In this document: piece after piece, positions 8,171 to 41,607 of the stretch | Layout: every line of letters starts with the position of its first letter | Numbering within the stretch: position 1 is the first letter of the stretch | Source of the DNA: Psammoneis japonica | Lineage: Eukaryota | NCBI GenBank assembly: GCA_008632985.1 | Contig: QPGO01000225.1 | Span: forward strand, 1-64,000 | Direction: 5' to 3' | DNA: 64,000 nt | Made by a program: the position numbers and the translations under genes | Notes under the pieces: model-generated | The model's database searches: none | Told to the model about the DNA's origin: nothing | Seen by the model: only the letters and a program-made list of their open reading frames with translations

Positions 8171-8229
8171 TTGAACATAAACCAGATCCACATTCTAGGC
8201 AGCTAAACCAATTTCACTTTAGTAAATTA

Positions 8230-10187
8230 TCACGACTCTGCGGCCTTCGAAATCCTCTTTTTGCTCCAATGTGAGGTTGATTTGCCCCAAGCAAAAACTG
8301 TTCCATTTTCCGCACTGTAGTGGACACGTCCATCCTTGATGTAGAAAGCCCCAGAAGTGTGGTGCTCCAGGTCGCCAGACGCGAATTGAATGGTCATCCT
8401 GTCCGTGATTCTGACTGCCTTGCCAAGCTCCGGGAAAATGAAGAACAGTTCAACGGCGTCTGCATTGTCTCGAACATCACCTACAAACTCATAGTGGCAC
8501 GTAGTTGGCACCGACAGTTGACCAAATTGGTCAAACCAGGCTAGAAGGTGCTCTTGCTCCTCGTCAGACAAACCAGGGCACTGCCGGATGTCATCTCGGC
8601 TCCTAATCTCCACAATGCCATCATGTTCGTCAATGTGGTTGGAGCAAAAGAAGGAAATAGTCCTGTTCCCAAACGTCAGTATTCCCCTGCCGCAAATTTC
8701 TCGAGGATCACAAAGCAAGATCTTCGAAAGAGCGCCAACCAGCAATCTGTCTCGGGTGACGGCTTGGCTGGCACCAAAGCTGCCAAGATGCGAGTGAAAA
8801 GCCGTCACTGCCGGCACCTTCAGATCCACATAGTGTTCCCGGTAGTACTGAAATTTGGCCAGGTCACCAGGTCCTTCGAGTAGGTTGGTCTTGTTCCTGG
8901 CCTTAAACTCCAAAGTTCTGAGAGAAAAGAAACCCTTTTGTCCATCAAACAGATTTGTCCCATCTGACTTGGAGTTGTGCCGCTCACCATACGCAACGCC
9001 AACTCCTTCCTTTGTTAGTCTCACATGGTTCATGTCAATGTCAAAGCGCTGGAAGGAAAGAAGAGTGGCAAAAGTTAATTTTGCTTGATTGCACAGCATG
9101 CCGCTTACAGAAGACTGCTCACCTGGGATGTTTGTCCGACCTTTACCAGCTTCAGCTCATTGTTATCCACCAGAAGCGTAAGTGCTATTCCGTGAGGATG
9201 ATCACGATGGTCCACTAGATCTAACGTTTCCTCATGCTGGGAAATCAAGAAGAGCTCAGCATCGTGTTCCCGAATCGACCGGCTGCCACACTTGGTGAAC
9301 TGAAGATGATCCTCCTTCGTGACATACGCTACCTTTACTTTCTGTGCATCACCTTGCAACACATACTTCACAGCAATCTTGTCTTTCATTTTTTCCCGTC
9401 GCATGGGACACGTGGACACACCCACTGACATTTGTTCTGGTTGGTTGTGCAGCCTTTCGTACCTCCGCTTCTTACGACTCAGGCGATTCTTCTTACCGGT
9501 ACGACGATTCTTCTTACCGGTACGACTCGGACGAACACTTGAAGTAATGATGTTCTGGGGCACAATGTTCTTCCTAGATTTGACATCATACACAAAGTCC
9601 GGGCCATGATAAGACGACTGTAAGAAGCCATCCAAGCTATCCCTGATCGTATCCCGATGACACAGCTCTATCCCTGGTACAGCATGCACCACATTGATAA
9701 ACTCGAATTTGCCCTTTACCGAATACAGATCAAAGTCAAGATCCGTCTTCTTTGTAAAGCAATCCCGTATAGCTGGAAAACCTTCTCGCCAATGTAGAAG
9801 GAAATCCGGAACAGGTCTGCCGTTTGTCTTCTCGCTCTTGACCATGCCTCCCTTCCAATCGTACACAACAAGCCTTTTTTTTTTATCCTCTGAGAGAGGA
9901 GACAAGTTCTTAACAACACACAGAGTGTGAGCTCCTCGATGAGAATGTATCGCGAGTTGGCCACAACTGTTGGCCACACCCTCAGTTCGAAGGACATGAT
10001 TGGGGAATATAACTGGGTACTGACAGCTAGAGTCGACTTTGATGCGGCTATTGTCGATGTGCTTCTTCAACAACACACCACGTGGGCTGATGATGTAATA
10101 ATGCTGTCTATACGAAACAGTATCGGAGAGGCGCTTGACGGTTAACTTCGACTCAAAAGAGTGAGAAAACTTAAACCGATGCGGCAT
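8230..10187 (-). CDS. Two-exon ~627-aa protein with a C-terminal putative TET/JBP-like 2OG-Fe(II) dioxygenase domain
   Basis: ORFs 9105..10187 and 8230..9099 join in frame through a 74-nt phase-0 intron at 9122..9049 (CAG|GTGAGC ... TTAAC ... TTCCTTCCAG|CGC). The C-terminus has FFCSNHIDEHD (HxD), FFIFPELGKAVRI and LEHHTS (distal His). Tyr and TA usage are normal. The gene model is firmer than the functional call. Confidence 0.6.
9484..9525. repeat. 21-bp in-frame tandem duplication (encodes RTGKKNR twice, basic and NLS-like)
   Basis: CGATTCTTCTTACCGGTACGA occurs twice back to back. Confidence 0.9.
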
Positions 10188-10338
10188 GGTTGCCGTAGAG
10201 AGAGGGACAGGGAGACACTGTCGTTGTCAGAGTGAGATGAAAAAAAGACAAGAGCGCAAGAAGTAAGAGTGGAAATTTTTGTGTGAGGATTTGCAGCATG
10301 GCTCACAACCACGCTGGCCTGTTTTTTCTGGTAAGGCA

Positions 10339-10808
10339 GAGCTAATAAAATCAGACATGAATAGATTCAATATTCATTTTCCCGCCCTTTTTTGACGCGC
10401 GGAAATTCGAAAATATCCAGTATCGCTAAAATAGAAGATCAAAGATCTCATTGCGCTATAGCTGGCCTGTCATTTTTTGTCCCTCCAAATACAGTATGTA
10501 CAGTACGTACATTTTTCCTCATGAGGGACTACAACAGGATTACCAACAAGATTTGGCGCGTTCCTTTCGCTTTCAAGTTCTTTCTGAGAGCTAATAAATA
10601 CAGATATGAATGGATTCAATGTTCATTTTCCCGCCCTTTTGACGCGCGCAAATTTTAAAACATGGACAGTGCATTCAAAAATGTGTGCAGTGTCGATAAA
10701 ATCAAAGATCTCAGTGCGCTGGCCTGTCATTTTTTGTCCATTTCCTCATGACTGCGACTGACAACAGGATTGCCACCAAGATTTGGCGTGTTCCTTTCGC
10801 TTTCAAAG
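10339..10808. repeat. Imperfect ~240-bp tandem duplication at the island/hypermutated-domain border
   Basis: Shared blocks GAGCTAATAAA, TTCATTTTCCCGCCCTTTT, ATCAAAGATCTCA, GCTGGCCTGTCATTTTTTGTCC and TTCCTTTCGCTTTCAA at ~10339-10577 and ~10588-10808. Confidence 0.85.
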
Positions 10809-13276
10809 ATCGACCATGGCGCCACCTCTGAAGCCTCCCAAAACACAGGAAGATGCAAAGAAGGCAAAGCTCTCTTTTGTGACCAACTTCTTCTCACAAA
10901 AGGAACGTTGGGTGCCCCTGCCAACCCAGAAGTTGGGGCAGCACACAAGGCAACAAAGGAAGGGTGCAAAACACAGCGCCTCTTGCAGCAGCTCCAGCTT
11001 GTTCCAGACAAGTTGAGCGAGATGCAGAGGTGAAGATCTCTTTGTGCATGTGATCAATTTTCATCACAAGATTCCAAGTGGCATCTTGTGGGCCTTCTGC
11101 ACATCTTGGTGCTGACTTGGGCGGCACTCAAAACAAAAGACTGCTTCGGCCCTTTTCCTCTGAATGCATCACATTGAGAGAAGTGCCGTGAAAAAGATGC
11201 TGGGGCAGCGGGGCCAATCATCAAAATGACAGCACATCATCTCAGCCAAGGTTGGAATGACAGGGGTTCAATGCGGAGCTGCGAGTGTGCTGCGTGGACA
11301 GGCCAGGCTCAAGAGCCGGCTCTGGAGAGCAGGGAGCTGGTGTGCCCGTGGTTTTCCCATCATGTGGCAAGGTTGAAAGCAGTTGAAATGCTTGGAAGAT
11401 GCAAACAAGAAGAAAGAAATGAGAGCCAAGCTGCAAGAGCTGCTTCCAGCTTCAAAGGCAAAGTTGCAAGAGAAGAGCGGTGACATCAGGAAGCCACACA
11501 CAAGAGGGGCTTGTGTGCCAGGTTGGGTTCTTGGAGCACAAGAGCTTGTTGGAGAGGCAGCCCATGCTGCGCAAACTCCTGAGAGTGCTGCCAGCACATT
11601 CCCAGAGCTCCTTCAGCTGTTTTTTGCAGCATTTCTTGGTGCGCCCATGCCCAATCTTTTCTTGCACAGCCACTGCATGGCTCTCTCTTTTTCTTTTTCT
11701 CTTTTCCTAGCACTGTGCTTTGCTCCACAAATGAGCCCCTGTTTTGACCCTTCTTCAGCTCTTCTTTCATTTTCCCACACAAGCGCAGCTGCATTTTCCA
11801 TCTGCTCTCCAGCACCAGCAGACCAAATGCCATGTCACTTGCCAGAGCCAGCCTGCTCTTCAAGCAACACTCAGCTTTGAGCTGGCTTTTCCATGTGACA
11901 CTCATGATGACAGCTGGTGAGAAGCCATGCACCTCCCCATGTTTCCCTCAACTGTTGCCCTTCCTCCAAGGGCTGCACCTTGCCATTGTTTCCTGTTTGT
12001 TGGCTCTTCTTGTTGAAGCTGAGCTGGCCTGTGTGGGCTGTGCACACACAACACAAGGTGTGTCAGCATTGGCCAGTGGCACTTGCCCCAGACAGCATCT
12101 GTGTCAGCGCCCATCTGCAACAGCAGCTTCTGCTGAAAAACTGATTCTTGAGTTCTCCACCAGCACTCTCATTTGACATCTCCTGTGTTTGTGCTTTGTC
12201 GATGTGGCGCGTGGCACATTGACAAGCTTGGACAACACAGCAACTCTCCAGTGCAGTCTTGCCCCTGCTCCTTGCTTTGCCCCCAGGATGTCACAACTTG
12301 GAAGCTGATGGGGAGATGGAGATTTTGAGCCAACAAGCCAATGTTGCCAAAAGGGAATCCTGTGAGAGGTTTCCTGTGCTGCTCTTTGCACTTGCCCTGG
12401 TTGCTGTGGCAGCTGTGATTTGCCTGGAAGTTCTCAATGAACTCCAGTCTTGTGACACAGCAAAGCCTGCTGATGCCACAGCACAATTTAAGATTGGCCA
12501 CACAAAAAGGTGCCAACGGGTGCTCTCGAGCTCCCAAAATGTTTGTTGAGAAAAAGCGCCCAGAACGCAGTCGCATGATGAACAATTGTTTTTTGTGCAC
12601 ACATGTGTTTTCCAACAAATTGCTTTGACCATTGAAGTGTTTTACCAGCCTCCATTCATTGGGAAACAGGAATTGATGAACAACACACACATGGCCAGAA
12701 AGCGCTCAATGAGAGCTTTCGATTAGTGTCCACACCTGAAAATTGACCATTCGAGCTGTTTCTAGCTCTGTTGGCACCTTTCCATGTGGCCAGTCTCATT
12801 TGTGCAAAGCAACCAGATGATTTGCTGCAAAGAGCAGGACAAAAAAAGGTTGGTGAGATTGGCAATGAACCCACACTTGTTGGCAAAGCAAGTGTCACAA
12901 AATCCACCATGTCAGCATCCAAAGCATCCTCTTGTGAACAACTCCAGTGCCACTTCCGGGTTCCACATGCTTCCTGCTCATTCCCAAAGCTCCAACACAC
13001 TCATGATGCTTGCAACCATGTTCCACTGTTCACATGACCCATGCTCATTGGGTTTGTCATTGTCTTGTGACAGCCTGCCCATCACTCTTGGTGTCATTGC
13101 CACCTGTTTCAGGACTCTTTGTGTCATCCTGCAAGCTGCAAGTTGCAAGCGTGCAAATGCACATGCTTGCCACTGTTGCTGCAATCAACCAAATTGTTGA
13201 GTGCACGTGCAGCTCCATCAACACTCTTCACAAAATGCTCCATGTGAGTTGGACAAGACTTTTCTCTGTCATTTTG

Positions 13277-13663
13277 GGCACAGTGCTGCTTCTCAAGTTT
13301 CAGTGGTCATCGAGTCTCATGGCAGAAAAACACTGCCAGATTTCTGGTGTTGATCTCTTGTGCAAGCGCACTTGTTCTGTCTCCAGGAATCAGCTCCCAG
13401 GACTTGCCAACATGATCATGATGAGACTTCTTTTCACTCCTCTTGCTCTCATCTTCTTGACCTGTTGTTTGGTCCATTGCTGAGCCGCCCACAATTTCTG
13501 GAGTCAAATCCAGGAATGCCATGTTGGCACAGTGCTGCTTCTCAAGTCTCAGCGGTCATTGGGGCTCATGGCAGAAAAACACTGCCAGGTTTCTGACATC
13601 AATCTCTCATGCAAGCACACTTGTTCTGGTGTCTCTGGGAATTGGCTCCCAGGACTTTCCAAA
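13277..13663. repeat. ~135-bp direct repeat pair
   Basis: GGCACAGTGCTGCTTCTCAAGT...CTCATGGCAGAAAAACACTGCCAG...CTCCCAGGACTT at ~13277-13410 and ~13527-13663. Confidence 0.85.
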
Positions 13664-16600
13664 ATTCTTTGGTCTTGTCTGCTTTTGCAGCATGTTCCAC
13701 AACTCCAGACACATCCTTTTGCTGCCAAAGACAGAGACAATGATTGGAGCAGCAGCGGTGATGTGCTCATGTGCTTCACAACTTGTTCCCTTTTCCACTG
13801 GGATGAAGTGTGCAGCCCTTTGTTTCAAGGTTGACACCTCAGATGGGTCAATGGCTGGCGGGCCAAACTTGGGTGCAGGTGATGCCATCATCTTCAAGCA
13901 AAGGGAAGTGGCAACTGGTTTGCCTTTGTGGGTCAAGAGCAAGATTCTGGTGAGGTTCTTGGAGCAAAAGAGCTCAGCATGGAGTTTGTCTTGTGTTTCT
14001 TTGGCTCAGAGGGTGGCAAGGGTGCTGGAAAGGGGGAAGTGATTGGAAGTTGCTCAAATCTTGTCATTGGCAGTGAGGCAGTGACTTGCAAGGGGGACTT
14101 GCTCCTGAAACTTGTTGAAGGTGTGGCACCTGCTGGCAACAGGGGCGGTGACATTGGGGGGCTTTCTGGACTTTGATGGAAACATTCTTGCTGCCACCAA
14201 GTTTGATGGTTGCAAACTTGGCATCTTCAGAAATGATTTTCTCAAGAAAGGAGCTTGTGCAGCAAAAGTGCTGCTGTGCCCCATGTTGTTTGGTGCCATG
14301 CAAAGGTGCCTTCTGGCACCACTGGAGCAGCAGCACTGAGTGATCCATGTAGCAACAGCCTTGACTTCTGCAGCAACCCATTTTGTTCTCTGGCGGCAGC
14401 AAATTTGAGCTCATTCAACTCCCAAATCTGCACGTGAGTTGATGCAGGGAGTGGCAGTTGGCTGACTCCCAAGGTGGGTTCACACAAGCAAAGAATTTTT
14501 CCATGATTTTCAAGCAGTTTTTGATGTGTGGCACTTTTCACCTTTGAGCTGACAGCCTCCACACATCTCTTGGTCAATGAGAAAAAAGGACCTCTTCAAC
14601 CTGTCTTGCAGCAAAGTGAAACATGGAGTTTTCTCTTTGCAACAGAGTGGAAGGCAGTGCAATGAGAGCTTCCACAAACTTGAAGCCAGGATTTTCCAAC
14701 TCCCCAGAGTCGCTGGTCAGAACAATCTTTTGAGATGGTGACAATTGCTTGCCCATGTTTTGAGGAGCTTGTTGCACAAAGGAGTCAAGCACTCTTGCTC
14801 AAAGAAGAGCTTTGACCCCCATTGCTTGCTTTGGAGCAACCCACACACTGTGGCAATCCTTCCTTGGAAGGGAGAGCAGGTTGCAGCTCCACATGAGATT
14901 GGCAAGAGATTGCAATGGACTGACCAGGCAAGCTCTCCAGCTCAAATTGCTTTGGCAACTGCAACCCCCTGACAAGAATGGCAAAGAAGGAAATTGAGCA
15001 CTGAAAAATGTTTTGCAATCCCGCAGCTCCTGAGCTGGTTTTCAACAATGGCTCCTCCAGTGCTGGCGTGCTGGTGCTGGTGGCTTGCATGGCAACAGTG
15101 ACTGGGACATTGAGGATGCTGTGAGAACAACCATGCTGCACTTGAAAGCAGAAAGGGTCCACTGTGATTTTGCAAGTTTGTGAATTTGGTCTTGTTGCTC
15201 ATGTTGAAAATTTGTTCATCTGCCTGCTGCACTTGATGAGCTGCAGCCCCCCACCCACCAGTTGACATCTGTTGGCTGGTCTGCCTTTCTTCCATGCACA
15301 TTGGCTGGCACATCTTTCAACTTCAAATTCTGCCTCCAAATTCTGCCAACATTTGAAGTCATGATGATCCTTCAGTCAACTGCCAATCCTCTGCCACCAC
15401 CTCCATCAGGGCCCACTCCTCCAAATTGCAGTGGCGCCAAGGCTTGCTCAGTCCTGCCATTCTGCCAACCACCATTCTTGTGACAAGAAGACTCCGCTGC
15501 ACATCAAGCAGGCTCTCCACAGAGAGGGATGGAGCAGACATTGTCAAATTTGGTGGCAACAATCTTCAGCTCTCCAAGCATTGCTCCAATGACCTTGATC
15601 AAGCTCATTTTGTGCAAGCTGTTTGCACTCCTGTCAAGGATCATCACAGCATGGAGAGTTCCTTTGTCATGCGCTTGGGTTCCATGGTTGTTGATCTCCT
15701 TGCTGTTGCCAAGAGCGGTTGCTTTTCCAATGTTGCTGCAGATTTCTGCACTGCAAGCATGATGATGTCACCCTGTTGCAGTCGGTTGCTGAGTCTTGAA
15801 CATCCTGTTGATTCAGGGAGAAGACCAAGGTCCAGTTCAGGCATGACAATCTGCTCCAGCATTGTCCTGGGCAGGCTCACATGACAATGGCAACAGATGC
15901 TTGCAACACATCTCCCATCCATGACACTGCACAAGCCGCCAAGGATCTTGAAGCTCTGTTGCAACAATCTGTCTGTCCCAGCAAAGATGTTTCCAAGTTT
16001 GCTGCTGAAGAACTTTGTCTCACCAAGCTCCTTTGATCCAGGCACATGTTGCCCATTGGATTTGGATTGGATGTCCTGAATCACAGTGAGGTCTGCAAAT
16101 GTTGGATGAGGTTTTGCTCATGAAACACAAGTGTTGCCTTGGCAGTCCCAAGACACTTGCCAGGGACTCTGACTGCAATGACCTGGGACCCACTGTGTGC
16201 ATGCATTGCACTCCTTCAACAACAGTGCTGGCTCTGCATTGCTGATGAGGATTGGCCTGGCTTCTTGACTGAGCTCCCCCCTCAGAGCCACAATGCCTCC
16301 AAAATCTGATGACAGCAGTGCCCAATGCTCCTGTGGAACCACAGCAGACCACTGGGCTGGCTGGCACAACCCCAGAAAAGTGTCCCAAGAATGTGGAAGA
16401 ACAACAGAAGCAAAAGAAAAAAGTGCCAGCAGTGATGGCAGACAAAAACAAATGGCGGCATCTCTCCTGCTGCTGCCAACACCTGCTTCCTGCATGTGCT
16501 GCTGCCATTGAAATTGCCCCTGCTGAGAAACAAGAGCCAAACTCAAGGAGTTGCTCACACCAACAGGCCCCGTTGTTGCACCCATCTAGAGGATCCCACC

Positions 16601-17499
16601 AAGCCCATTGTGAGCAAGTCTGGTTTGACCTGTTTCTGTGAAAAGTGCACTCTTTCAAGCACACTGGCGACACAGGGATGTGACATGCACAAATCACAGG
16701 AAACTGGACCACACTCACAAGCTGCCCAAGCAAGAGCAGCTTGTGGGTGACCTCACCTTCATCAACCATCAACAACCCATGCTCAGGCACCCACCTGGGC
16801 TGGCCACCCAGACTGCCTCAGATCCAACTGACTCACCCAGGGATGCTCCTGTTGGTGGCAAGGAACCAGTGTGAACTGGGCTTCATTGTGCTGCAGTCAA
16901 GTGTCCATCCCCTGCTGGCTCTGCACCAACTGCACAAGTCTGCTGCAAGCCAGCTCCTGCATCTCAGAGGGAGTTCACCAAGATTGTTGTCAAGAGACTG
17001 TTGAGCCTGAAGATGCTGGTGACTGCAGCATTGCTTCAGCAGCTGTGGCGACCTCTCTTGGGACAATGCTGGTGTCATGCTCCCCAACAAGGACCCTCCC
17101 ACAAGCCAGTTGGCACCTCCTTGACAACTCTGCTCTACCTGCCACAGAGCAGCACTGCATTGATGCCATGTCCAAGCCAAATCTGGCACCTGACGTGCTG
17201 CCTGGTGCCCCAAGCTTGCACCATCTTTGCCTGTGGCATCTGCTGAGGATTCTCTCCCCACCATGTCTGCCTGCTCAAATGTGCGCCCACCCTGTGTTGC
17301 CATCCCTGCCATGAGGGTGTCATTGCAAGCACAGTTGCTCCATGGCAATTTGTGCACAGTGGCTGGCCACACTCTTTCCCACCCCTTTCAGCCCTTTAAC
17401 TCCCCATGCTCTCAGCAGACTCACAATTTTGTCTCTGCTCTTGATGGCTGAGTTGACCTGTTGCCCAGTGTGCTCATCCAGCGCTGCTCTCTCAAGGCA

Positions 17500-19930
17500 T
17501 GACACAGCTCAAATGTGAGTTGGCGGTGCACTCAGACAGAGACAAGAATGACACACCCACTCTGCCTTTTGATCTTGCCAATTTGATGGAACTGAGTGAT
17601 GACAATGATTTTGTTGAGGTGTGCACACAGCCACCCACTGATCAGGAGTGCTTTTTGATGATGAGATGCTCCGCAACACTGACTGTTCTCCAGTCTGGAC
17701 ATCTTTGGTGCTTGAGGACAACAAGCTTGAGAGTGTCATCAAAACAAATCTTGAATGTTGTGGACTCAGTCACAAGTCAACCATGCCTGTTCTTCAAGGA
17801 TGAGATGATTTGAGTGGTCTGTGTTGATGATGCCAGTCATGCTGGAAAGGACAAAGGATCAAAGCCCTGGGGGTGCAAGATGAGAAACAACATCATGTGT
17901 TTGAGTTGCAAAACAAGCAAGAAGTTGACAATTTTCTTGGTGTCAAGATTTGCAAGACTGCAATGGCCCCAAGGAGTCCTGCTCACCCAGTCTGGCTTGA
18001 TTGGAAGGTTCTCAAGACAGCTGGTGCAGAGAATCACAGGTCAGCTTCCACTCCGTGTGCCACTGCTCCATGTCACAAAGATGAAAAAGCAGCCAAATTC
18101 AACAAGAGCTGCAATTGCCATGTTCCATTGTTGGTGTGTTGATGCATCTCATCAAGCTGCCCATTTTTCCTGCACTCCCAAGCACTCTCACATGGTTGGG
18201 GCAAGAAAACATCATGCTCCATGGCATTTGCAGGGTGCTGGGGACAAGGGACTCTGCCCATGCCCTGGTGACAACAAATGGATTGGCTGCTTTGTTGGTG
18301 CCAACTTTGCCAGCCTGTGCGGCCATGGGAAACTTGGGCTTGTCAGCAGATTGTCTGTGTGTGCCAGAAGATTGACTTTTTCACTGTGAAACCACTTGCT
18401 TTGAGCAATGAACACAAAAATGCTTTTAAGTGGGGCGCACTCCCTTGGCTGCAACAAAGAACACGGCAACACACACACACCACAAAATGCATTGAAAATC
18501 ACCTCTTCCAGTCTCTCCAACACACGAGGCAGCTCACATGTGAACCACCCTTGCTTGGCCTCAGCAGCACACCTGTGCAAAAAGTTGCAGAGCCAATTTT
18601 TTCCTGTTGGCCCCTTGGAGACACAGCCAGAGAAATCATTGTTGAGTGGTGACAACAAGAGACTGCTTGAATGAAAAAAAAAAGATCAGCAGGCAGCAGG
18701 GGTCAATCCTCTGAACCAAACAATTGATCTGCTGGCCCCATTTTTCCCACAATGACCCTGTGGACCTGACTGGCATCAAGTCTTGCACTGGGCACATGTC
18801 ATCTTGGGTCATGAGTGTCTTGTTCTGTGGGTTTTCATGCTGCAGATGCAGGTCATGCTTTCTGCTGTGGAGGCTGGCTCTGTTGGCTGTGATGCACATC
18901 AACTTAGCTCCAATTTGTGAAATTTTGAAAGGATTTCAGACTCACACATTTGGGGGCAAGAACTGCAAGACACCTGCCACTGCCAAATCCAGAGCCTTTT
19001 CAGATGCAAAGGAAGGCAAGATCCCATCCTTGATTGTGTGCAAGGACAGTCTGACCTCAAGCATGCCTCAACTTTGCAAAAATGACAAAACTGTCTCCTT
19101 GTGCAAAGCACATCAGCACTCCCTGCCGCTTGCTCTGCATGAAGGCAGAGGGAGGAGGCTCTTGAGATTCGTGGCGCTGAAGCTGATCCTTTCCAAGAAC
19201 GTGATGAGTGTTGTTTCAGCAACTGTGCAAGGTTTGTGCCACCCCACAGAGTCATGGCTGCCCACCAGCATGCCTCTTCCATCAGTGGTTTCTCTGGTGG
19301 CCCAAGTGCCTCCCACTCCACCTGCAGCACACCAACACAGCCTTCTCTGTGGCGTCACCAGCCCCTTCACTTTCATCTCTGCCCCAGGTGGAGCCTTCTC
19401 CAGGTCCTCTCTTGTCAGACTTGCCTCAGAGGGAGACAGCCCCACAGACACCACACAGTGCAAGGATCAGCCCTCTGTTGAAGCCCTCCACTCCCCAGAG
19501 CCTCTCTCTCATGGACCCAGCCAAGAGAGGGAGTTGCCTCAACCACTTGCACAGAGGAAGGAAATGCCTGCCACTCCTCCTCCCTTGCATTTGACTTGAT
19601 CTCATGCTCCTCTGCAGTGGCGTGGGCATGATGGATCCAAGGGATGTGGCCACTTGGCACACTTTGACAGCTGCATCCATGCACACAGGTTCAATCATGG
19701 GTGCTCCATTTCTGTGATTGCTCCCCAGGTCTGCAAGGCCACCACTTGCAAGAACAAGGATCCCAACATGCTGTCATGGGACAAAGCAATGCACCACCCC
19801 AGATCATGAGAAATGACAGCTGAACGTGTCCGCAGCAAAAATTGCTGCCCTTGGGCAACAAGACACATGGGCTGAGGTCCCTGCATCATCTGCTGAGTCC
19901 AGGATGCTCCTCCCTGGGATTGCTCAGCTT
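17500..19930 (+). mobile_element. Ty1/Copia LTR-retrotransposon pol remnants (RT/RNase H), degenerate and rearranged
   Basis: QPCLFFKDEMI*VVCVDDA (Copia DPCLF..YVDD), VDNFLGVKI, LTQSGLI, CFVGANFASL (YVDADFAG), DP..IKSCTGH (KSRTGY), and KDPNMLSWDKAM / KIAALGQQDTW from the RT N-terminus. Confidence 0.75.
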
Positions 19931-22258
19931 GAACATTCGAGACCAGGAAATGCAAAAAAAAACTCCAAAAATTGCCATCAAAGCAGTGATGAAATTGGAG
20001 CTGTTCTTTGTGAAGCACAAATTGGATGACAATGGAGACGCTCCCAACAGAGACACGCAGCTGGTGCATGAAAATCTTCTTGCAACCATCAGATGCACAG
20101 CTGTGATTTTGCCAATTGTAAAAAGTCTGTCAGTTGAAAATTTGGTGGCTGAACTTTCTTCAATTTGTTTTCATGGTGCAAGTTAAGAAGCAGGCAAGAA
20201 ACATTTGAGAGACAAGCATTGACCATCAGTCCATGAACAATTGTGAGTGTGGAAATCACTTTCAATTGCCTCCAACAGCAGTCGCGATGTCCTCTTGCAA
20301 GCAGCCCAGCTTTTGTTTCTTTTGCGATTCATTCTTGCAGGTCCTGGAACAAGACAAGGCATGCACTCTTTACACAAGGTGTGGGAATTAGTGGCACAAA
20401 GGCTCCTGACTTGTTGTCCACAACCCATGAATTGATGAGCAAGCACAAAGTGAAAAGCACTGTGCTCTGTCGAAACATGAGACCAAGGTGCATGAGATGG
20501 ATGTGAGTGCAGTCTCTCTTGAAGGTAACCTGGTCATCAGGGTTGCAGCACAATGAAGGCTCGTCATCCACAAGTGCCAGCCAGTGGCAAATGCCAAACC
20601 CACTGAGTGAGGTGCAGATCTGATGGAGCTTGATTGGAGCACAGCACCTTTGCTTCCAGAGAAGGACTGGCAGAGAAAACTTGACTGACGCAGAGAACCA
20701 TTGGAGTGTTTGACACCACATCGCCACTCAACACCTTCCTCAAGGCAAACCATGCTCTGCCCTTCAATTCCTTCCTGCATTGATCACAGAGCTGGAGCAG
20801 TGTGTGGTGACAAGCCAAGCATTGCCAAGCCAAGAGAGCTGAGAACCTTTGCTCCATGAGCACAAGCTTCCACACAGCCCACCATTTGTGGACAGCAACC
20901 CACTTTCTGGCCAGTGCATCAAAGTGGCAGCCAACAGCTGTCAAAGACTCTAAAAGGCGGCCCTTCTTGCTGCCAACAGCATCAGGTGAATTGGTTTCCA
21001 ACAAGCAAGTTGGGAGACCAGCCTCAGCGTCAACGCAAAGGTCCAAAGCATTGTTGCTGCTGACTTTCATGACAGCGCGGAGTTCAACATGTTGCGGACA
21101 ATCTGGGGGTGTGGCGCCCATCAATTCTTGTTGTCATGAGCGATGATCTGACAACTTCAGCTGCCAATGCTCTTCTCTGGGTGTCCGGCTGTGGCAACCT
21201 TGGTTGCGGCCGCCCGGTGCTCTCACGACACGGAGATGTTCCAGAAATGCCGTCAAGTTTTCTCTGACCAAGTGGTGCATCTGGCCATGAGAAGTGGAAG
21301 CATTGCCAGAAAACATCCACTCTGCACACAAGACTGAACTGGGTGGCATGTTCTCACCACAAAAATTTCCTTCAATGTGGCTGAACTTCAAGGGGGCTCA
21401 GGGTGGGAGTGAACGGGATGTGGCTTTGCCCAACGACAATGGCTGGATGGGATGAGCACTGCTTTGGGTTGAATGATCTGTCCATGGCTCTTGGCTTGCT
21501 TGCTGCAACTTGGCTTGGACAGTTGAAGCTGGTGGTTGATGCGGCCTTTTGCAAGCCATGCCGCTCTCATCATGAACGGTGCTTGAAGACATTCTTGCAA
21601 ACGAGAGAAGTGGCAAAAGCACAAGTGCCACAAGGTGCTTTTTGAGGATGTTGTGCTTGTTCTTTGTTCTTTGGGCCCTCACCCAATCAACCAACCACTG
21701 AGAGCCGCAAGATCCCACCCCCAAGAACTGGCCACTCTCCAACAGTGACGCAGCCTGGCTGCTGCTTTGCCTGTCTCCCAGTTTCATTGAAAGGCCACTT
21801 CAAAATCAACGCCAATCTGGGCAAGGACACACAAGTGTCTGTTGCTCCTGGGCTCCACTTCGTGAGCAGAAGCACCCTGCTGTGCGGCACTGTGCAGCAC
21901 GGCACTGCAGCGGGCGGCGGGCGCCAAATGCGCATTTTGAGACTTGGCATCTTCGCGATGTCTGGCGCCCTGCCCAGCGATTGGCTGCAGGGCGCTTTGC
22001 TGTCCCTGCGTCTCAGCACAGCTGTAGAAAATCGAGAAGAAGCTGCACTCATTTTGAGAAAGGACAGTCAGATCAAGATGTCAGCAGGGCTTGCCACGTA
22101 GACTCTACGTAGCACGCAGTATGTACACCCATCGCCCAAACAGTACATCGTTCACGCGCAGTATCGCGTAGATGTCAGCAGATCTGAGACCTTGCAGATG
22201 TCAGCACTTAGCACAGGCATGTTATGCCGTCTTATCAACAACAACACAAAACAGAATA

Positions 22259-23377
22259 ATGAGTCGCCACTGTATATCACAGTTAAGCTACACACTTGTA
22301 TTCTTGTTCTTTATAACGATGCTACAAGTTGAGAGTTTAGCAACAAGCTACAAGGCCGAGTGGATAGATCTTTCCAAGAGGAGAGAGAAGATCACTCCAC
22401 CCCGATCCGGACACGTTTCTTTTACGACAAATCAAGGTGACTTGTACGTCTTTGGCGGATACGTGGAAGAAAAAGAAGAAAACGGCGATGCTATAACTCG
22501 ATACGTCAAGAATGATTTGTGGAAGTGGAGTAGCAATCAAGGTTGGATTCCACAAAAAAACAGTGATGCTCCCAACCCACGGTTGGCGTCTGCCTGCGCC
22601 ATTTTACGAAACAAGCCCACCTTATTTGGTGGTTGGGATCCACAAACACCAGGAACTGGTGGAATTATTCTAGACGATATCGTGCAATTAGAGGATGGAA
22701 GCCAATGGAATACGCTGGAAAACATCAAACTACCCGACGGACCTACGAGTCGTCATGTCGCGGTTGCTTTGCACGACGACTGCGTTTTGTTGCACACTCA
22801 TCGCTGTACCAATCACGTTCTTGTCGTGACTACTGTAAATGAAAAGGGCAGTGGCGTGTCTATTAAGAAGCAAGCCACTACGGGTGACGCCCCCTCACCA
22901 CGTGGTTTGCATGCCGCCACGTTGATATCGAAAAACAAGCTACTCATAACGTGCGGAGCCGCACAGGATAGGACCATGTCCAACGAGGTGTTTGTATTAG
23001 ATACTTCCATATGGGAGTGGACACGTGTCGAAATGACCAATGCTGCTCCGTGTCCTCGTGCTTCGCCTTGTCTATGTACCGTACAAGATGGTGTTGCCGT
23101 ACTGTTTGGTGGTGCCAAACGCAAGAATGGTGGATTGGAAGGATGCAGCGACGTTTGGTTATTGTCCATGAATGATGAATCATGCCGCAGCGGCAAATGG
23201 GAATTATTGATCGAAAATGGAGCAGCTCCCGGACGCAATGCTGCCACCATGAATCGTATTCCCGCTCCATCATCCCACAAGAAGAACGACGGAGACTACT
23301 TTTTGCTTCAAGGAGGATGGGAACCCTTTCAAAAGACTTACAATGACAATTACGTGCTGCGTGTATACAAAGAGTAA
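22259..23377 (+). CDS. Kelch-repeat beta-propeller protein with probable N-terminal signal peptide
   Basis: Repeated kelch motifs PPRSGH..LYVFGG..NDLW, PRLASA..LFGGW, PSPRGLHAA, PCPRASP..LFGG..DVW. Hydrophobic N-terminus from the ATG at 22259 (upstream in-frame ATG at 22172). Confidence 0.9.
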   Translation: MSRHCISQLSYTLVFLFFITMLQVESLATSYKAEWIDLSKRREKITPPRSGHVSFTTNQGDLYVFGGYVEEKEENGDAITRYVKNDLWKWSSNQGWIPQKNSDAPNPRLASACAILRNKPTLFGGWDPQTPGTGGIILDDIVQLEDGSQWNTLENIKLPDGPTSRHVAVALHDDCVLLHTHRCTNHVLVVTTVNEKGSGVSIKKQATTGDAPSPRGLHAATLISKNKLLITCGAAQDRTMSNEVFVLDTSIWEWTRVEMTNAAPCPRASPCLCTVQDGVAVLFGGAKRKNGGLEGCSDVWLLSMNDESCRSGKWELLIENGAAPGRNAATMNRIPAPSSHKKNDGDYFLLQGGWEPFQKTYNDNYVLRVYKE

Positions 23378-23543
23378 GCAAGCTATACAATATTCTCTAT
23401 AGTTTTACGGTACATCACAGAAATAAAACACTAGATACAGTTTTAAAATAGATAGAACGGCCGAGTTCGCGACAAGCGTTCCACAGCCACTTATGAACCA
23501 CGTCCAATAGCGAGACACACAACACACTCGCTCCTTTACATAT

Positions 23544-25438
23544 TTATTTGAATTCCGCTCTCATGACAGATTCAATATCTTCACTGAGAATCAATTGAGG
23601 ATCAAACTCATCATCCTCTTCCATTTGCGCAATACGCATTCTCCTTCGCACTTGAGCACGGCATCCGGCAAATAGCATTTCCGCAACAGTCCCATTCCGT
23701 TCCGCCCTCCACCCCGACGTGGTTTCTTGTTCCAACAATTGCGAAATCATACTAACCGTCATACCCTCCTCCAAATCAAATCCCTTGGCGGCACACAAGT
23801 CACAATAAATCTGCGCCAATTCCAGACACGTATAATCGGGAAATTCAAACGTCAAGGTGAATTTGCGTCTCAAATTCTCATTGAGCGCCAAAAAGGTTTG
23901 CATCTCAGCGGGAAAGCCCGCCAAGACAATGAGTGGAAACGTGTCATCATCGTCGGGCCGTTCTTCCGTGGCTGCCACCAATTCGGCAATGGCATCCTTG
24001 CCGGTATCAAACTGGTTCCGCCGTGACGCCATGCCGAGTGTGTAGGCTTCGTCAATAAACAAAATTCCACCACGAGCCTCATCCAAGACTTCTCTCGTTT
24101 TCAACAAAGTCGAATTGCGATCCCGTCCCGTCAAATCCATGCGCTCCACTTCGAGAAATTTCGGTTTCCGCAACAATCCCAACTCGTGATAGGCCTTGGC
24201 CAAGAGGCGCGCCACCGCCGTTTTGCCCGTCCCGGGATTGCCGACAAACACCATGTGCGGTGCGTGTTGCTTTTCCCCCGCTTGAAAGCCCGGAGGCAAT
24301 TGGGGACCGCGGCCGGGACGTATATTAGCCGGCAAGAGCGAATCGCGCAAATCGGCAATTTCCGTCGCTCGGCGTAATCCACGCACTTGCGACTTGATGT
24401 GTTCCAAACCCACCACCGACGACAACAAATCTTCGACGCGATCGCGGGGAAGATTGGATTGAGAGGATGACGAAATTTGCTGTTGTACCGCCATGCGTCC
24501 ACCCCGGGCATCCCGAATCACTGTCGTTTGACGCTTCTTGACCGCTTCCAACAAAATGGCATCCGACTGCTCCGTTTTGGATTCGGAAAAGGCCAATTCC
24601 AATTCATTCGGATCCAATCCCGCCGTATAGAGCGCATGAGGAAAGCGATCCGCCAAACGCCGGACGGCCGCCAGTGCCAAGTGCAAATCCTTGTGTTGCC
24701 GTCCCCCGGCATCACCGAGCGCATTCAACTTGCGTTCGAGAGCATCGGCCCGTTCTTGATACTTTTCCGCCTTTTGCCTCCTCGTCAATTCGGGTGGTGG
24801 CGGACGTCCCTCCAACATGGCAATGACGGCTTCGGACGCACTCTCATCGGCCAATGCCAAATCGAGCGGCGTCATGCCATCGTCGTTTTGCAAATGCAAC
24901 GCGTCGGGATAGGAATCAATCAACGTCCGAACTACTTCGGGTGACGCTTGGTTGGATGCCGCCATGTGCAGTGCCAAACTACCGTATTGATTACGAACCG
25001 TGGCGCCTTCGGGATAACGTGATAACAACAATTCGACCGTTTCCAACGGAGCTTGCCACATGGCGGCTTGGTGAATGGGTAAATTGCCTGCGCCGTTGGG
25101 TTGAGACGCACCGCCGGGATACGCCTTGAGGAGGGCCTCAATGACATCTTGTGTGCCTTGAAAGGAACATGCCGCGTGTAACGGCAAATTGCCGCGTTCA
25201 TTCAAACGAGCGGCCTCTTCGGGAAATGAGGGTGAGACCTATATAAGGAGGAGAATCAGTGGGTAAGAAACTCGTTGCACGAAAAATCGCAACGCACTCA
25301 AGACAATTTCTTTTTTATCGATTGCTATTCTCTTCGCTCTTTAACAATACTTTTTCCGTTTTTGAAATTACACACCTTGCTTCGACTCAAAAGAGCACCA
25401 AAGCCCTTGCAGAGTTCATGGAGCGTCGTGTCCGTCAT
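23544..25438 (-). CDS. Ankyrin-repeat protein fused to a CbbX/SpoVK-family AAA+ ATPase
   Basis: Ankyrin repeats (GNLPLH, GNLPIH, GSLALH, GMTPLDLA), VVGLEHIK, Walker A HMVFVGNPGTGKT, Walker B GGILFIDEAY, FEFPDY. Proposed exon 1 at 25438..25376, with a phase-0 GT-AG intron at 25375..25239. Confidence 0.9.
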
Positions 25439-25878
25439 GGTGGTGGTGTGTCTCTTGTGTTCAACGTTGTTGGGCTTTTGTTTTCGTCAAGCGGGACTTT
25501 TTTCTCCTTCCACGGAACGTCACGGTGAAACAATGTTAATCAATAGATTTTAATATTGTTATTGAATAATTTTTCATACACCATGCGTTGAATACCGTTT
25601 TTTACTATCACATTTCTTTACATTCACAATGCCACGACCGTTGAGAAGCCTTGTTCAACGGCACAAGGAATATGAATATCAAATTCAGTCTTGTGGGATT
25701 GAATCCCACTCGTGTCTGAAGTGTACGTGGATTGAAAATTTTGGTATGGTAACTTATCTTTGCGTGCGCTCATCGTTCATGCATCACTCGCCGCCGCCAT
25801 GATGGTGTGAATGATACAACGCCATACACAATAGTCTCGTGTCTATTTCAAGATCCCTCCGTATTGTTGAGAATCATC

Positions 25879-26814
25879 ATGCCTCGTACACGTTTATGGA
25901 TTATTACGGGTGTTGTAGTGGCCGCAGTCATTGGAGCCATTGTCGCAATCGTGGTGGTTGTGACGCGTGATGATGACGATTCTTCGTCATCCAACAACAA
26001 CAAGTCAGAGCAAAGCAACGCTGCTGCGGGGAATAATCCAACCGTTTTTCCATCGTTATCTCCATCCATGACGACTCCATCCCATCCAATTACTACTACT
26101 ACTGTATCTCCATCTCCGCTACTACCCATTTCATCCACAAGCCCGACGGATTCACCGACATTTACAACATTCCTTGAACCGTCCATGCATCCTTCTTTGG
26201 AACCTACTGTTCAACTTGTTGTTCCAACAGGAGAGATACTGGTGGGCCAATCGATTGGATACGATTATTTTTATTGCAATGCACCACAAAATAACAACAA
26301 CAGTAACAAACAAATTGTCTTGTTGCATGGCGCTTCCTTTAACAAGCAAGTTTGGAAAAGCACAGGCATTTTGGATCAATTGTGTGATTCTCCAACAACA
26401 ACAGTCGTGGCTATGGATTTTCCCGTCAGTTCAGATCGGGCCGATATCGAGGTATTATTGGATGCTTTACAAGATGATGGCATGATTATCAAACCCGTCA
26501 TGCTGGTGACACCGTCGGCATCGGGATTTACCATTGTGGATTGGATTGTCAATGGGGACGTTTCGTATCTACCCGAATACGTATCGACATGGGTCCCCGT
26601 AGCGCCCGTGTCCCTGTCGCTGGCATCCGATGCTCAACTCTCGGCTTTGGTCTTGCCCATTTTGGCTATCTACGGGAATCGAGATTCGGGAGGTGAACGC
26701 TACAGTCGGCGGCTGGAGCAATTGGCGGGTGCGACCGTGGTCGAATTGCAAGGGGGACACGCGGTGTATCGGCAAAGTCCCAATGAGTTTGTAGAGGAAT
26801 TGATGAAATTTTAA
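25879..26814 (+). CDS. Membrane-anchored ABHD14-like alpha/beta hydrolase
   Basis: N-terminal TM helix, Ser/Thr/Pro-rich linker, VLLHGASF..W, VTPSASG nucleophile elbow, VPVAPV, LAIYGNRD, GGHAVY. Confidence 0.85.
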   Translation: MPRTRLWIITGVVVAAVIGAIVAIVVVVTRDDDDSSSSNNNKSEQSNAAAGNNPTVFPSLSPSMTTPSHPITTTTVSPSPLLPISSTSPTDSPTFTTFLEPSMHPSLEPTVQLVVPTGEILVGQSIGYDYFYCNAPQNNNNSNKQIVLLHGASFNKQVWKSTGILDQLCDSPTTTVVAMDFPVSSDRADIEVLLDALQDDGMIIKPVMLVTPSASGFTIVDWIVNGDVSYLPEYVSTWVPVAPVSLSLASDAQLSALVLPILAIYGNRDSGGERYSRRLEQLAGATVVELQGGHAVYRQSPNEFVEELMKF

Positions 26815-26947
26815 AAAAAGGGAGGAGATGGGAATGCAAGAGAAGAATGGATGCGGAGCTTATACGCCGCTCCGCTTATATCGTACAAGTACATTGGCTC
26901 TTGCTCTAAAGTTGGGAAGGATCTATTCGACAGGGGTTGTGAATATC

Positions 26948-27397
26948 TTATTGCTCACAACTGTTTGGGACCCGCCGTGTGTCTGTTGCTTTTCCACTCA
27001 TTGCAACAAACCAGACCCCAGGATGGCATGAATGACTGCTAGGGAAATCGTGTCGATTGGATTTGAACACCATCACATCATAGAAGAGTTGGCATGGTGT
27101 GTAGCGAAGCTTTAGCACCATTACCCAGGTAAGTATCACTCACACTGATTGGGTGGTAGTTTTGGTTCTGACGTACGGCGACTCTAACATGGTTTAACCA
27201 ATAAATCTAGGCGACGCTTGTCGATGACTCATGCGGACCTGATGTGGCGGAGATTTGATCTGTTACGACATCACACAGTACGCTGTGCAGCAAAAGATGC
27301 GAAGTGGTAGTCCGGGAGATCCAGCATAGCTTACTTTCAATAGAATAATAGACTTGTACGTATTCAAAAAGAAACGAATCATTGTTGTGAGCAACAA
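26948..27397. mobile_element. ~450-bp element with terminal inverted repeats (LTR-like or MITE-like)
   Basis: TTGCTCACAAC at 26951-26961 is the reverse complement of GTTGTGAGCAA at 27384-27394. The right end is ...ACA, with an internal AATAAA. No target-site duplication seen. Confidence 0.4.
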
Positions 27398-27599
27398 CTT
27401 GTTCAATGCTAGGGCCCTATGGTGCTAGGACCCTGGTTTGTAGCCATGTTGTTGTGCTAGCTACCAAAAAGAAATGGGGCACCACAACAGCGCATAAGCT
27501 CTTACCATGTAAAACACTGAGGGCTCTGCTGTGTATAGTGCATTTGATGTCATACAACGGGTTTTAAGCGGTTGTGAGCGGCATCAGCATCAAGTTTGT

Positions 27600-33500: not shown

Positions 33501-33680
33501 ATCACTCATGGCCACAATCCGCGAAAGTGTGTGAGGGTGGTGAGTCAAAGTGCGAAGCGGGCGCTGGACCAAGGCACCGCGTTCCGCGGTTTAGTGGCTT
33601 GCTTGCATGCGCCATCCACAAGTTGCAGCACCGGCAGGTGCAGTGGGGCCCTGGCTGCTCTGCCAGTGGCTGGCAGGCCC
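27600..33680. other. TpA/CpG-depleted hypermutated domain
   Basis: TA nearly absent, contains a Gypsy remnant. Confidence 0.85.
28060..30400 (-). mobile_element. Ty3/Gypsy LTR-retrotransposon remnant (gag-like region, RT, RNase H), frameshifted
   Basis: LPRIQDIV.KRKGCKHFTKL, LELDEES, CFVDDV, KVNPLKCKWAVQETNFL, QLRSFVGAISCCRDMW, FEWTPACQKAFEEIK, DASDCQL, EKEMLA, VHTDHKNLTF. Confidence 0.9.
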
Positions 33681-34017
33681 TCTAGCTAGAGCCAGCTCCA
33701 CCATTCTAGGGCCCTCTCTCTGTCTGCGAAAACAGGGGGGGTGCCGACGGAAGAAGAGGGGGGGAGAGGGGGAGCGAAGCGACCCCGTTGCTGCTGCAAC
33801 AACAAGAGAGAAGGAAGGAAGAGAGGAGAAGAACGCAGCAATGGTGGAAGTGAGTGCAAGGTGCGTTGTGTTGTCGCATTTTCGTGGCGTTGAAGATGCA
33901 GATCATGAGCCTGTCGCGCATAAAAAATTTCCACGGTTGATTTTGTTCAGGCGCCACCGCCCCCCATTTCCCATCTTCCGTCTCGGCGCCAATTCGAGAT
34001 GCAACCATGGGCTGGAA

Positions 34018-37356: not shown

Positions 37357-37756
37357 TGATGATGTGTGTTCTTTCAGAAAGCCCCAAGTGTTGCAGCGTG
37401 CATTCTTAGAATGAAGCGTTCTGATTGGTCCAATCTTCCATCGGCAGGGGGCTTTCGTCGGTCTGCGAAAACAGGGGGGGTGCCGACGGAAGAAGAGGGG
37501 GGGAGAGGGGGAGCGAAGCGACCCCGTTGCTGCTGCAACAACAAGAGAGAAGGAAGGAAGAGAGGAGAAGAACGCAGCAATGGCAGAAGTGAGTGCAAGG
37601 TGCGTTGTGTTGTCGCATTTTCGTGGCGTTGAAGATGCAGATCATGAGCCTGTCACGCACAAAAAATTTCCACGGTTGATTTTGTTCAGGCGCCACCGCC
37701 CCCCATTTCCCATCTTCCGTCTCGGCGCCAATTTGAGATGCAACCATGGGCTGGAA

Positions 37757-41094: not shown

Positions 41095-41449
41095 CGATGA
41101 TGTGTATTCTTTCAGAAAGCCCTAAGTATTGCAACGTGTATTCTTAGAATGAAGCGTTCTGATTGGTCCAATCTTCCATCGGTAGGGGGCTTTCGTCGGT
41201 CGGTCTGCAGAGTCGTGTGACTGTTGTCTGTTCTCTGACTGCATAAAAAGCGCGCCAAAATCTAAGTTTTTCCGCGCCTGCTCGCCCTCGTTCGATTTAT
41301 TTGGCTCACATTGGCCTTGTGTAAATACAGTAAATAGAAGTAATTTACCGCTTACCGCAATACTACAGTTGAAACAGAAGCGACAGAATATCTGTTGCGA
41401 AGATCCTTGACTTTAGTGTATAATCCCTCTAGAGAGATCCTTCTCTGCG

Positions 41450-41500: not shown

Positions 41501-41607
41501 AGAGGAGCAGTCCGGAGTGTGGTACTGTAGCTCTGAGGGGTAGCTCTGTTTGTCTGTAGGCTCATTCAGAGACATACCGTACGTCTGAACAACAAACTAC
41601 AAACAGC

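Follow-up and report, generated by a model that had tools for sequence, protein, structure and literature searches.

What has removed almost every TA dinucleotide, and with it the tyrosine of a catalytic YxDD motif, from a reverse transcriptase (RT) gene in a diatom? The question is raised by a decayed Copia-type RT lying in 64,000 nucleotides of Psammoneis japonica DNA (assembly GCA_008632985.1, contig QPGO01000225.1, positions 1 to 64,000 of the forward strand; this whole stretch is hereafter the window). We describe the mutational signature of this region, its direction, sequence context and strand symmetry, its origin in resident DNA and its restriction to elements, and show that it recurs in related elements from other samples. 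The reading that we regard as probable is that two transition processes, each specific to a sequence context, have rewritten silenced mobile or junk DNA where it lies and have spared the adjacent host genes. A TA-erasing mutator has so far been reported in one other alga, Bigelowiella natans, and it probably represents a genome defence.

Within the 1061 nt at positions 17770-18830, TA is found once, against 70.5 ± 6.1 occurrences expected from 2000 shuffles (minimum 53), and CG five times, against 62.2 ± 5.9 expected from 2000 shuffles, with TG and CA being equally frequent (123 each). When the stops are read through, the translation of 17457-18830 has a single significant relative, P0135 (HMMER search of 1.84 billion representatives, E = 2.4e-4), which is a Copia-type RT (Pfam RVT_2, E = 2.3e-38); pairwise BLASTP comparison of the two yields E = 3e-15 with 24% identity over 272 amino acids (aa). 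In the alignment, VVCVDD falls on ITYVDD, WHLQG on RYLKG and FHCW on LNYL, and the CVDD codons are TGT GTT GAT GAT (17820-17831). The remnant contains TGA stops and at least one frame change, and its ORF pieces are not recognized by Pfam even at E ≤ 10. With the CVDD motif, the TGA stops and the frame change, 17553-18311 is a dead copy of a Copia RT.

Across the 64 kb, the observed-to-expected ratios (o/e) are 0.23 for TA, 0.51 for CG, 1.53 for TG and 1.58 for CA, and the effect is block-wise. The blocks and the elements recognized in the window are the following.

1-7944, no strand assigned: fully converted block, with TA o/e of 0.00-0.06 and CG o/e of 0.05-0.24 in 1-kb bins and TA-free runs of up to 1377 bp; none of its open reading frames (ORFs) has a Pfam match.
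7946-10697, no strand assigned: unconverted block, with TA o/e of 0.35-0.55, CG o/e of 0.62-0.82 and a sharp TA border at 10697.
10698-22024, no strand assigned: fully converted block in which the Copia remnant and a BRCA2-like fragment lie, with TA-free runs of up to 2236 bp and a jump in TA density at 22025.
17553-18311, plus strand: decayed Copia-type RT, delimited by the tblastn match, with YVDD to CVDD at 17820-17831 and RY to WH at 18222-18227.
20657-20917, minus strand: BRCA2-like (helical/OB1) pseudogene fragment, from residues 395-481 of the frame, in a TA-free stretch.
22025-27752, no strand assigned: normal host-gene block (Kelch, ankyrin-AAA and alpha/beta hydrolase genes).
27753-33591, no strand assigned: fully converted block holding a Ty3/Gypsy remnant, delimited by TA and CG composition and TA borders.
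28570-29145, minus strand: decayed Ty3/Gypsy RT-RNase H, with NYYR to SCCR, NY to NC and GY to RH, the codons having been checked.
33719-41201, minus strand: partly converted, predicted IS256/Mutator-like DNA transposon in tandem duplicate (two copies of 3739 bp with 98.5% identity).
41202-50969, no strand assigned: normal host-gene block, with TA o/e of 0.46-0.85 and CG o/e of 0.78-1.04.
50970-53379, no strand assigned: fully converted block, delimited by TA and CG composition and a TA border.
53380-58249, no strand assigned: element resembling a long terminal repeat (LTR) element, with direct repeats at 53380-53776 and 57855-58249 (90.4% identical) and a TA-free interior that retains CG.
58250-64000, no strand assigned: fully converted block by TA and CG composition, which includes the amino acid string WHAND.

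The five converted blocks, 33,271 nt in all, contain 77 TA (o/e 0.036) and 397 CG (o/e 0.197), compared with o/e of 0.61 for TA and 0.95 for CG in the three normal blocks (18,248 nt); two elements (12,480 nt) are intermediate, at 0.155 and 0.70, respectively. TA-free runs longer than 400 bp number 31 in the window, the longest reaching 2236 bp. The TA density flips within ~100 bp at 10697, 22025, 27752 and 50969, and the shift in CpG density is more gradual. Normal and converted blocks have nearly the same total of pyrimidine-purine steps (246 and 236 per kb, respectively), and therefore TG and CA have taken the place of TA and CG. Classical fungal-type repeat-induced point mutation (RIP) shares with this pattern its action on DNA, restriction to transitions, dinucleotide specificity, occurrence in repeats and sharp borders, and the diatom DNMT4 enzymes are described as related to fungal RID (PMC9998398). 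RIP, however, creates TpA and AT-rich DNA, whereas here TpA is destroyed and the GC content is unchanged (0.492 in converted versus 0.477 in normal blocks); because the direction is opposite and the GC content has not moved, RIP is the least likely of all the explanations weighed here, with a negligible probability, and for the TpA arm the direction of change refutes it.

The signature extends to sequences unrelated to Copia. The Ty3/Gypsy remnant is recognized by Pfam (RT_RNaseH_2, E = 2.9e-16; RVT_1, E = 0.0012 in the read-through translation) and aligns with the Ty3 RT (4OL8, E = 4e-14), with seven tyrosines of Ty3 being replaced by four Cys, one His and two Phe. The tandem duplication carries a 1207-aa ORF (34021-37641, minus strand), for which the database search yielded 11 homologues (E = 1e-72 to 1e-104, 31-36% identity). 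At the 20 columns in which the consensus of these homologues is Tyr, the ORF has four Tyr, seven Cys, four His and five other residues, and in the same alignment it retains 6 of 7 Trp, 12 of 14 Cys and 12 of 13 Glu. Its AlphaFold model (pLDDT 76.7) finds the IS256-family ISCth4 transposase as the best match in the PDB (Foldseek E = 3.6e-4, TM-target 0.39), with cores of retroviral integrases coming next; residues D261, D323 and E517 are invariant, and the ESM Atlas points to DUF6729/MULE clusters. Pfam lends little support (2 of 12 members match DUF6729, with E = 0.011 at best), a PDB profile search with the transposase alignment gave no match, and the search for terminal inverted repeats returned matches of chance size only. 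We read the ORF as a Mutator-like DDE transposase of the IS256/Mutator-like kind, the IS256 family being kin to Mutator.

The BRCA2-like sequence was identified in the ORF at 20567-21133 (minus strand) by Pfam (BRCA-2_helical, E = 1.6e-6) and by comparison with rat BRCA2 (1IYJ, E = 2e-8), and is either a gene-derived pseudogene or a captured fragment. TA is absent for more than 1 kb around it and the position aligned to ...KYRY... now reads ...CDQC...; since the fragment lies in a TA-free stretch, gene-derived DNA inside the block was treated alike. A non-LTR RT at about 61.5-63.0 kb is, in contrast, not supported: the letters WHAND are present at 62194-62208, and the resemblance is by eye only, with no Pfam match at E ≤ 1 in the three plus-strand frames of 61500-63001, no PDB chain at E ≤ 10 for the WHAND frame and no usable ESM Atlas match for the 70-aa WHAND ORF. 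The original prediction had Tyr turning into Cys or His in four classes of transposable elements (TEs), of which three, Copia, Gypsy and the DNA transposase, can be upheld, the change of YVDD to CVDD in the Copia RT being borne out by the codons and by the alignment with P0135, and the non-LTR element drops out for want of a homology match. Its view that the change is not restricted to retroelements is likewise supported, both by the DNA transposon and by the BRCA2-like pseudogene.

Duplicated sequences in the window reveal when the changes occurred. Self-comparison identified the 397-bp direct repeats of the LTR-like element, which lie 4475 bp apart; no pol domain was found in this element by Pfam and homologue searches, and a target-site duplication is not recognizable. 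The repeats differ at 26 sites, comprising 10 doublets with TG in one copy and CA in the other, 10 cases of CG versus TG or CA, two of TA versus TG, three other transitions and one transversion. The tandem transposon copies differ at 50 sites (5 TG/CA doublets, 18 TA versus TG or CA, 19 CG versus TG or CA, 6 other transitions and 2 transversions), and share 36 TA and 177 CG. The copies were identical when made and, therefore, the changes hit resident DNA. Each TG/CA doublet requires two independent changes at an ancestral TA or CG, and the doublets number 10 in the direct repeats and 5 in the tandem copies, versus ~2.1 and ~0.25 predicted from CpG decay alone. As a rough and indirect estimate from the single tandem pair, changes were ~4 times as frequent at TA sites as at CG sites, and the bases of TA and CG changed ~90 and ~21 times, respectively, as often as other bases. 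All 18 TA-type and most CG-type changes between the tandem copies are found in the inner part of the array (36.6-39.1 kb), which surrounds the junction at 37458 (combined Fisher test, P = 2.6e-5; TA-type, P = 3e-4; CG-type, P = 0.07; the cut point was chosen post hoc).

The same process can be followed in relatives of the transposase. Scanning metagenome contigs, mostly microbial-mat assemblies, with the transposase alignment yielded 78 loci from 251 confirmed relatives, indicating a multicopy family, with TA o/e ranging from 0.34 to 0.74. Over the whole set of 78 loci, the lower the TA o/e, the larger the share of homologue-Tyr positions occupied by Cys or His (Spearman -0.715, P = 2e-13), the extremes being exemplified by L015, which retains Tyr at 26 of 27 positions, and L056, in which 23 homologue-Tyr positions are occupied by two Tyr, nine Cys, seven His, three Phe and two other residues. 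In L056, the TA o/e is 0.13 in the gene (353-2119) and 0.68 in the flank; in 25 loci, the values are 0.49 for genes and 0.63 for flanks (Wilcoxon test, P = 4e-5), a comparison in which coding and non-coding composition may also differ otherwise. Seven non-overlapping close pairs, 98.7-99.96% identical, were retained, leaving out the identical L066/L068, two pairs that reuse L009 and pairs with ≤92.4% identity. They differ by 54 TA-type changes, 4 doublets, 30 CG-type changes, 8 other transitions and 17 transversions. With L009 as the outgroup to the tips L041 and L059, the well-aligned columns show 11 changes of TA to TG or CA against a single CA to TA, and two of CG to CA against one of CA to CG; majority-rule polarization of this trio, which gave 18 versus 12, was misleading and was discarded in favour of the outgroup. 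Because these relatives range from intact to heavily converted, the TpA process seems, judging by the contigs, to be active in natural microbial-mat populations.

One metagenome pair, L054/L057, has 8217 bp in common at 99.89% identity, and all five TA-type and both CG-type differences are located in the transposase gene (3001-5217), although only 58 of the 305 TA sites lie there. This pair bears on the possibility that the changes were introduced into RNA or cDNA before integration, by editing of the ADAR or APOBEC kind or by RT error, an idea to which the prominence of retroelements among the recognizable victims and the preference of ADAR for a 5' U (stated in bioRxiv 10.64898/2026.01.13.699255) lend some appeal. 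Changes made at that stage would not account for near-identical contigs with common flanks that differ inside the element only, for direct repeats of one element that differ by these very changes, for the signature in a DNA transposon and its tandem copies, or for a gene-derived pseudogene in a TA-free stretch, and we consider this origin exceedingly unlikely. The evidence supports changes made in the chromosome, and the direct repeats, the tandem copies and the L054/L057 pair together bear out the claim of the original prediction that the process operates on chromosomal DNA rather than through RNA editing or RT error.

Sequencing or assembly error at modified bases, for example miscalls at methylated sites, would also target dinucleotides of this kind, given that they are the ones that carry modifications. 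Nevertheless, the TA-free stretches are matched by Logan contigs of run X1, which probably stems from the sample of the window itself, and a 2355-nt contig over 14275-16630 differs by only 7 letters; independent metagenome assemblies display the same signature in related elements; and copies have TG versus CA at one and the same site, in frames that bear ordinary decay as well. An artefact is accordingly as improbable as pre-integration change. Contigs of 90-95% identity are plentiful on the converted blocks, with the caveat that contig depth is not copy number, and among the 36 of 320 variant sites in run contigs that were viewed, 19 are of the TA or CG type (including four doublets) and 17 are of other types.

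Both strands are affected alike. The converted blocks contain 3671 TG and 3701 CA (P = 0.74), and a local excess of TG is seen at 55-57 kb only; among the metagenome TA losses, 60 produced TG and 48 CA; and, relative to the sense strands, Tyr became Cys or His in a ratio of 13:6 (P = 0.17). Hence the expected balance between TA to TG and TA to CA is found, with no strong strand asymmetry. The six-frame Tyr content drops from 2.38% to 0.04% with conversion, and almost no TAA or TAG is left in converted DNA, resulting in long ORFs on both strands. The further claim that no new stops arise holds for the TpA arm and fails for the CpG arm, in which CGA can become TGA, and TGA is abundant in the dead frames (14 in 606 codons). 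Neither the parallel CpG loss, nor a 3' pyrimidine preference, nor the published B. natans precedent had figured in the original prediction.

The sequence context of the TpA changes was determined from 108 TA losses in 8 close pairs (two of which share a locus), oriented such that the mutated base is A. This A is followed on its 3' side by C 53 times, by T 36 times, by A 13 times and by G 6 times (chi square test, P = 8e-12), corresponding to relative rates of 2.05, 1.41, 0.42 and 0.24, respectively; no preference for G at +2 was seen in the metagenome TA losses. The duplicates within the window agree, with a 3' pyrimidine in 13 of 20 losses versus 27 of 74 retained orientations (P = 0.04), as do the TA that survive in converted relative to normal blocks (0 for ATAT and ATAC, 0.009 for GTAC, 0.16 for CTAG, 0.19 for CTAA and 0.37 for TTAA). 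The target is therefore 5'-TAY-3', which corresponds to 5'-RTA-3' when the T is taken as the mutated base. Losses are not scattered evenly over the TA sites but clustered, forming 152 runs in the metagenome pairs versus 179.9 ± 6.9, and L021/L028 alone show clustering with P = 0.0003.

Loss of CpG accompanies that of TA in the same blocks and lags behind it: some stretches have zero TA and a CG o/e of 0.5-0.9, and the reverse, stretches with CG lost and TA retained, was not found in the window. TCG and ACG are the first CpG contexts to be lost in the window, and GCGC the last. The ratio of TA to CG changes varies strongly between element pairs (22:3 versus 3:15, Fisher test, P = 4e-6; chi square test over six pairs, P = 3e-6), and therefore two separable processes are likelier than one enzyme. 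Phaeodactylum TEs are reported to be CpG-methylated via DNMT5a (PMC9998398), so that the CpG arm would most simply represent deamination of 5-methylcytosine in methylated repeats. The alternative, a single enzyme of dual specificity that deaminates A at TpA and C or 5-methylcytosine at CpG, would fit the co-occurrence of both change types in the same blocks and in the same central tract of the tandem duplication, the production of TG on the deaminated strand by both arms, and the editing of A and C in DNA by amphioxus ADAT2 that is cited in bioRxiv 10.64898/2026.01.13.699255. Against it stand the discordant TA:CG ratios and the one-sided order of loss (TA zero with CG retained, never the converse), as well as the absence of the term CpG from the main text of that preprint, which makes a shared enzyme very unlikely.

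Marginally less credible still is ordinary long-term decay, in which methyl-CpG deamination combines with the general under-representation of TpA and no dedicated mutator is involved. CpG loss is indeed commonplace in methylated repeats and TpA is mildly under-represented in the host genes as well (o/e 0.61). Decay of this kind does not, however, explain a TA o/e of 0.036 over 33 kb, with TA-free runs exceeding 2 kb, a ~90-fold excess of changes at TA over other sites between copies that are 98.5% identical, or changes that are clustered and confined to elements.

Under the reading of two processes acting on resident DNA, the faster one would convert A:T to G:C at TpA on either strand, yielding TpG or CpA with a preference for 5'-TAY-3', and would act in local clusters that end within ~100 bp of the block borders; the slower one would convert CpG to TpG or CpA, and the two together would erase both self-complementary pyrimidine-purine steps. 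In coding sequences, Tyr would become Cys or His, the Y of YxDD included, TAA and TAG would vanish and CGA could turn into TGA, leaving an element that is dead yet rich in ORFs. Targeting, we infer, proceeds through a silenced or methylated chromatin state, and the whole may constitute an evolved, targeted defence of the sort proposed for B. natans.

As for the chemistry, the most likely option, although it falls somewhat short of being probable, is that a TadA/ADAT-like enzyme deaminates adenine in DNA, giving inosine. Modification of the opposite base offers another route, in which T at 5'-RTA-3' is either mispaired or modified, as when a TET/JBP-type enzyme oxidizes it to 5-hydroxymethyluracil, with C becoming fixed in its place. 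The signature is strand-symmetric, each TA to TG being TA to CA on the opposite strand, and the TAY preference could just as well be a preference for a purine on the 5' side of the T; in dinoflagellates, 5-hydroxymethyluracil occurs preferentially at TpA. The only TpA-specific nucleic-acid editors that we could document are, in contrast, the U-A-specific TadA/ADAT adenosine deaminases (PMC10027721), and we rate thymine-side chemistry as rather unlikely. A broader proposal, doubtful although less so than the thymine route, is that diatoms and chlorarachniophytes share an old innate defence common to the SAR (stramenopiles, alveolates and Rhizaria) group, in which a nuclear TadA/ADAT-like deaminase acts at 5'-TAY-3' beside cytosine methylation. 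Such a deaminase would be directed to silenced or foreign chromatin, would act on double-stranded chromosomal DNA, and would kill the invader by progressive loss of its Tyr codons and of signals that contain TA. This defence would be a purine-side counterpart of fungal RIP and would amount to a natural DNA adenine editor.

Several observations weigh against the interpretation of targeted, adenine-side rewriting of mobile DNA. Most of the 33 kb of converted sequence lacks recognizable TE homology, and the designation of TE blocks is partly interpretation because only three remnants and one pseudogene were identified. Phe occupies four Copia and two Gypsy Tyr positions, which the TA signature does not explain, and the outer parts of both tandem copies kept TA, only the central tract having changed. 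The polarity comes from outgroup comparison of metagenome relatives and not from the window itself, and runs coordinated along one strand are weakly indicated (P = 0.07). Finally, the sequence cannot tell adenine-side from thymine-side chemistry, and fungal ADAT-type editing, as described in PMC10027721, prefers A or G at +1, unlike the C or T found here.

In the normal blocks, Pfam recognizes host genes of the Kelch, ankyrin-AAA, hydrolase, AlkB-like/SRA and arrestin-like kinds. Identity of the ankyrin-AAA ORF reaches 77-78% with the closest relatives in the database and 60-70% with proteins of diatoms such as Mayamaea, Nitzschia, Pseudo-nitzschia and Ditylum, which marks the window as diatom DNA. 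In the Pfam scan of 206 ORFs of at least 110 aa on both strands, the only matches inside converted blocks were BRCA2 and RT_RNaseH, and rescanning 12 long ORFs at E ≤ 10 gained nothing useful. A 918-aa ORF (54737-57490, minus strand) inside the LTR-like element consists of low-complexity sequence, had no homologue among 8000 scored candidates and is probably a stop-free artefact. Repeats spaced by 249 bp at 10338 and 13267 proved to be mutually unrelated.

Contigs of run X2 were found on the host-gene block only, at 22202-27129, and one of them omits 137 nt (25237-25373) in the manner of a spliced ankyrin-AAA transcript; this run may be RNA, though it is not recorded as such. In the otherwise normal gene block, a small tandem repeat at 44758-45023 has copies that differ by three same-strand TA to TG changes within 13 nt (TTATAAAGTAG versus TGATGAAGTGG), and these may form a small strand-coordinated cluster outside the converted blocks. 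At 41560-43474 (plus strand), what appears to be a single gene, with two short GT..AG introns placed by eye at ~42186-42283 and ~42450-42541, encodes both an AlkB-like 2OG-Fe(II) dioxygenase (2OG-FeII_Oxy_2, E = 1.1e-7) and a domain of the SRA type (SAD_SRA, E = 4.3e-17); the end of the dioxygenase fold (…RLAIIFRDG) seems to share an exon with the start of the SRA domain. If real, this fusion would unite a methyl-DNA-binding module with an enzyme of the nucleic-acid demethylase type, next to the converted transposon; a literature search returned no description of an AlkB-SRA fusion.

If the interpretation is correct, mobile DNA is also countered by targeted A:T to G:C mutation at TpA in a second, very distant lineage, the diatoms, which rank among the most important primary producers of the sea; B. 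natans is then no longer a single-species case and the defence is possibly widespread. The enzyme could then be found by comparing both lineages, as well as diatoms with and without TA-free blocks, and might prove to be a natural DNA adenine deaminase of interest for base editing. There is also a practical hazard for annotation: because converted DNA is poor in stops, the window yields 206 ORFs of at least 110 aa, up to 918 aa without a homologue, that can be mistaken for genes, and standard profile searches overlook the dead elements. The literature search found no report of TpA-directed mutation in diatoms, although papers outside it may exist, and it found no other defence based on DNA adenine deamination.

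Among known systems, RIP of Neurospora and other fungi is similar as a genome defence with in-place, context-specific transitions on both strands of repeats and sharp blocks. It changes C to T mostly at CpA, creating TpA, stop codons and AT-rich DNA, whereas in the window the change is from A to G at TpA, which eliminates TpA along with two of the three stop codons and leaves the GC content as it was. Methyl-CpG deamination in the methylated transposons of vertebrates and plants resembles the CpG to TpG/CpA arm, graded with apparent age, but cannot explain the faster TpA arm. APOBEC and ADAR editing of retroelements likewise mutates mobile elements by deamination; these enzymes act on cDNA or RNA before integration, without reach to DNA transposons or resident duplicates. 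The TadA/ADAT enzymes have a strict 5' U-A context, and the UACG of bacterial TadA would fit T-A-C, a suggestive parallel only, but according to PMC10027721 they act on RNA hairpin loops, activity on chromosomal DNA being hypothetical.

The closest counterpart is B. natans, for which Mettrop et al. (2026; bioRxiv 10.64898/2026.01.13.699255) describe mutation-accumulation lines where 231 of 302 nuclear mutations fall in two viral inserts, an integrated nucleocytoplasmic large DNA virus (NCLDV) and a virophage. All but one of the insert mutations are reported as A:T to G:C, all of these at TpA, at a rate ~1000-fold above background, and the authors propose an ADAT2-like DNA adenine deaminase. 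The main text of the preprint contains none of the terms CpG, trinucleotide, flanking or diatom, although its supplements could hold context data. The two cases are alike in the A:T to G:C change at TpA, giving TpG or CpA depending on the strand, and in its restriction to foreign or mobile DNA; TpA-depleted coding sequences of B. natans are, according to the same preprint, enriched for RT and DDE domains. Hits are clustered in the window and metagenome loci and are described as line-specific in B. natans. The cases differ in the host, a diatom (stramenopile) here versus a chlorarachniophyte (Rhizaria), and in the victims, which are transposons of several classes and a pseudogene here versus the NCLDV and virophage inserts reported there. 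To what the preprint's main text offers, the window adds near-complete conversion (TA o/e of 0.036, against 0.45 given for the B. natans NCLDV region), a 5'-TAY-3' target with its 3' pyrimidine preference, the clustering of changes and a CpG loss that forms a separable arm.

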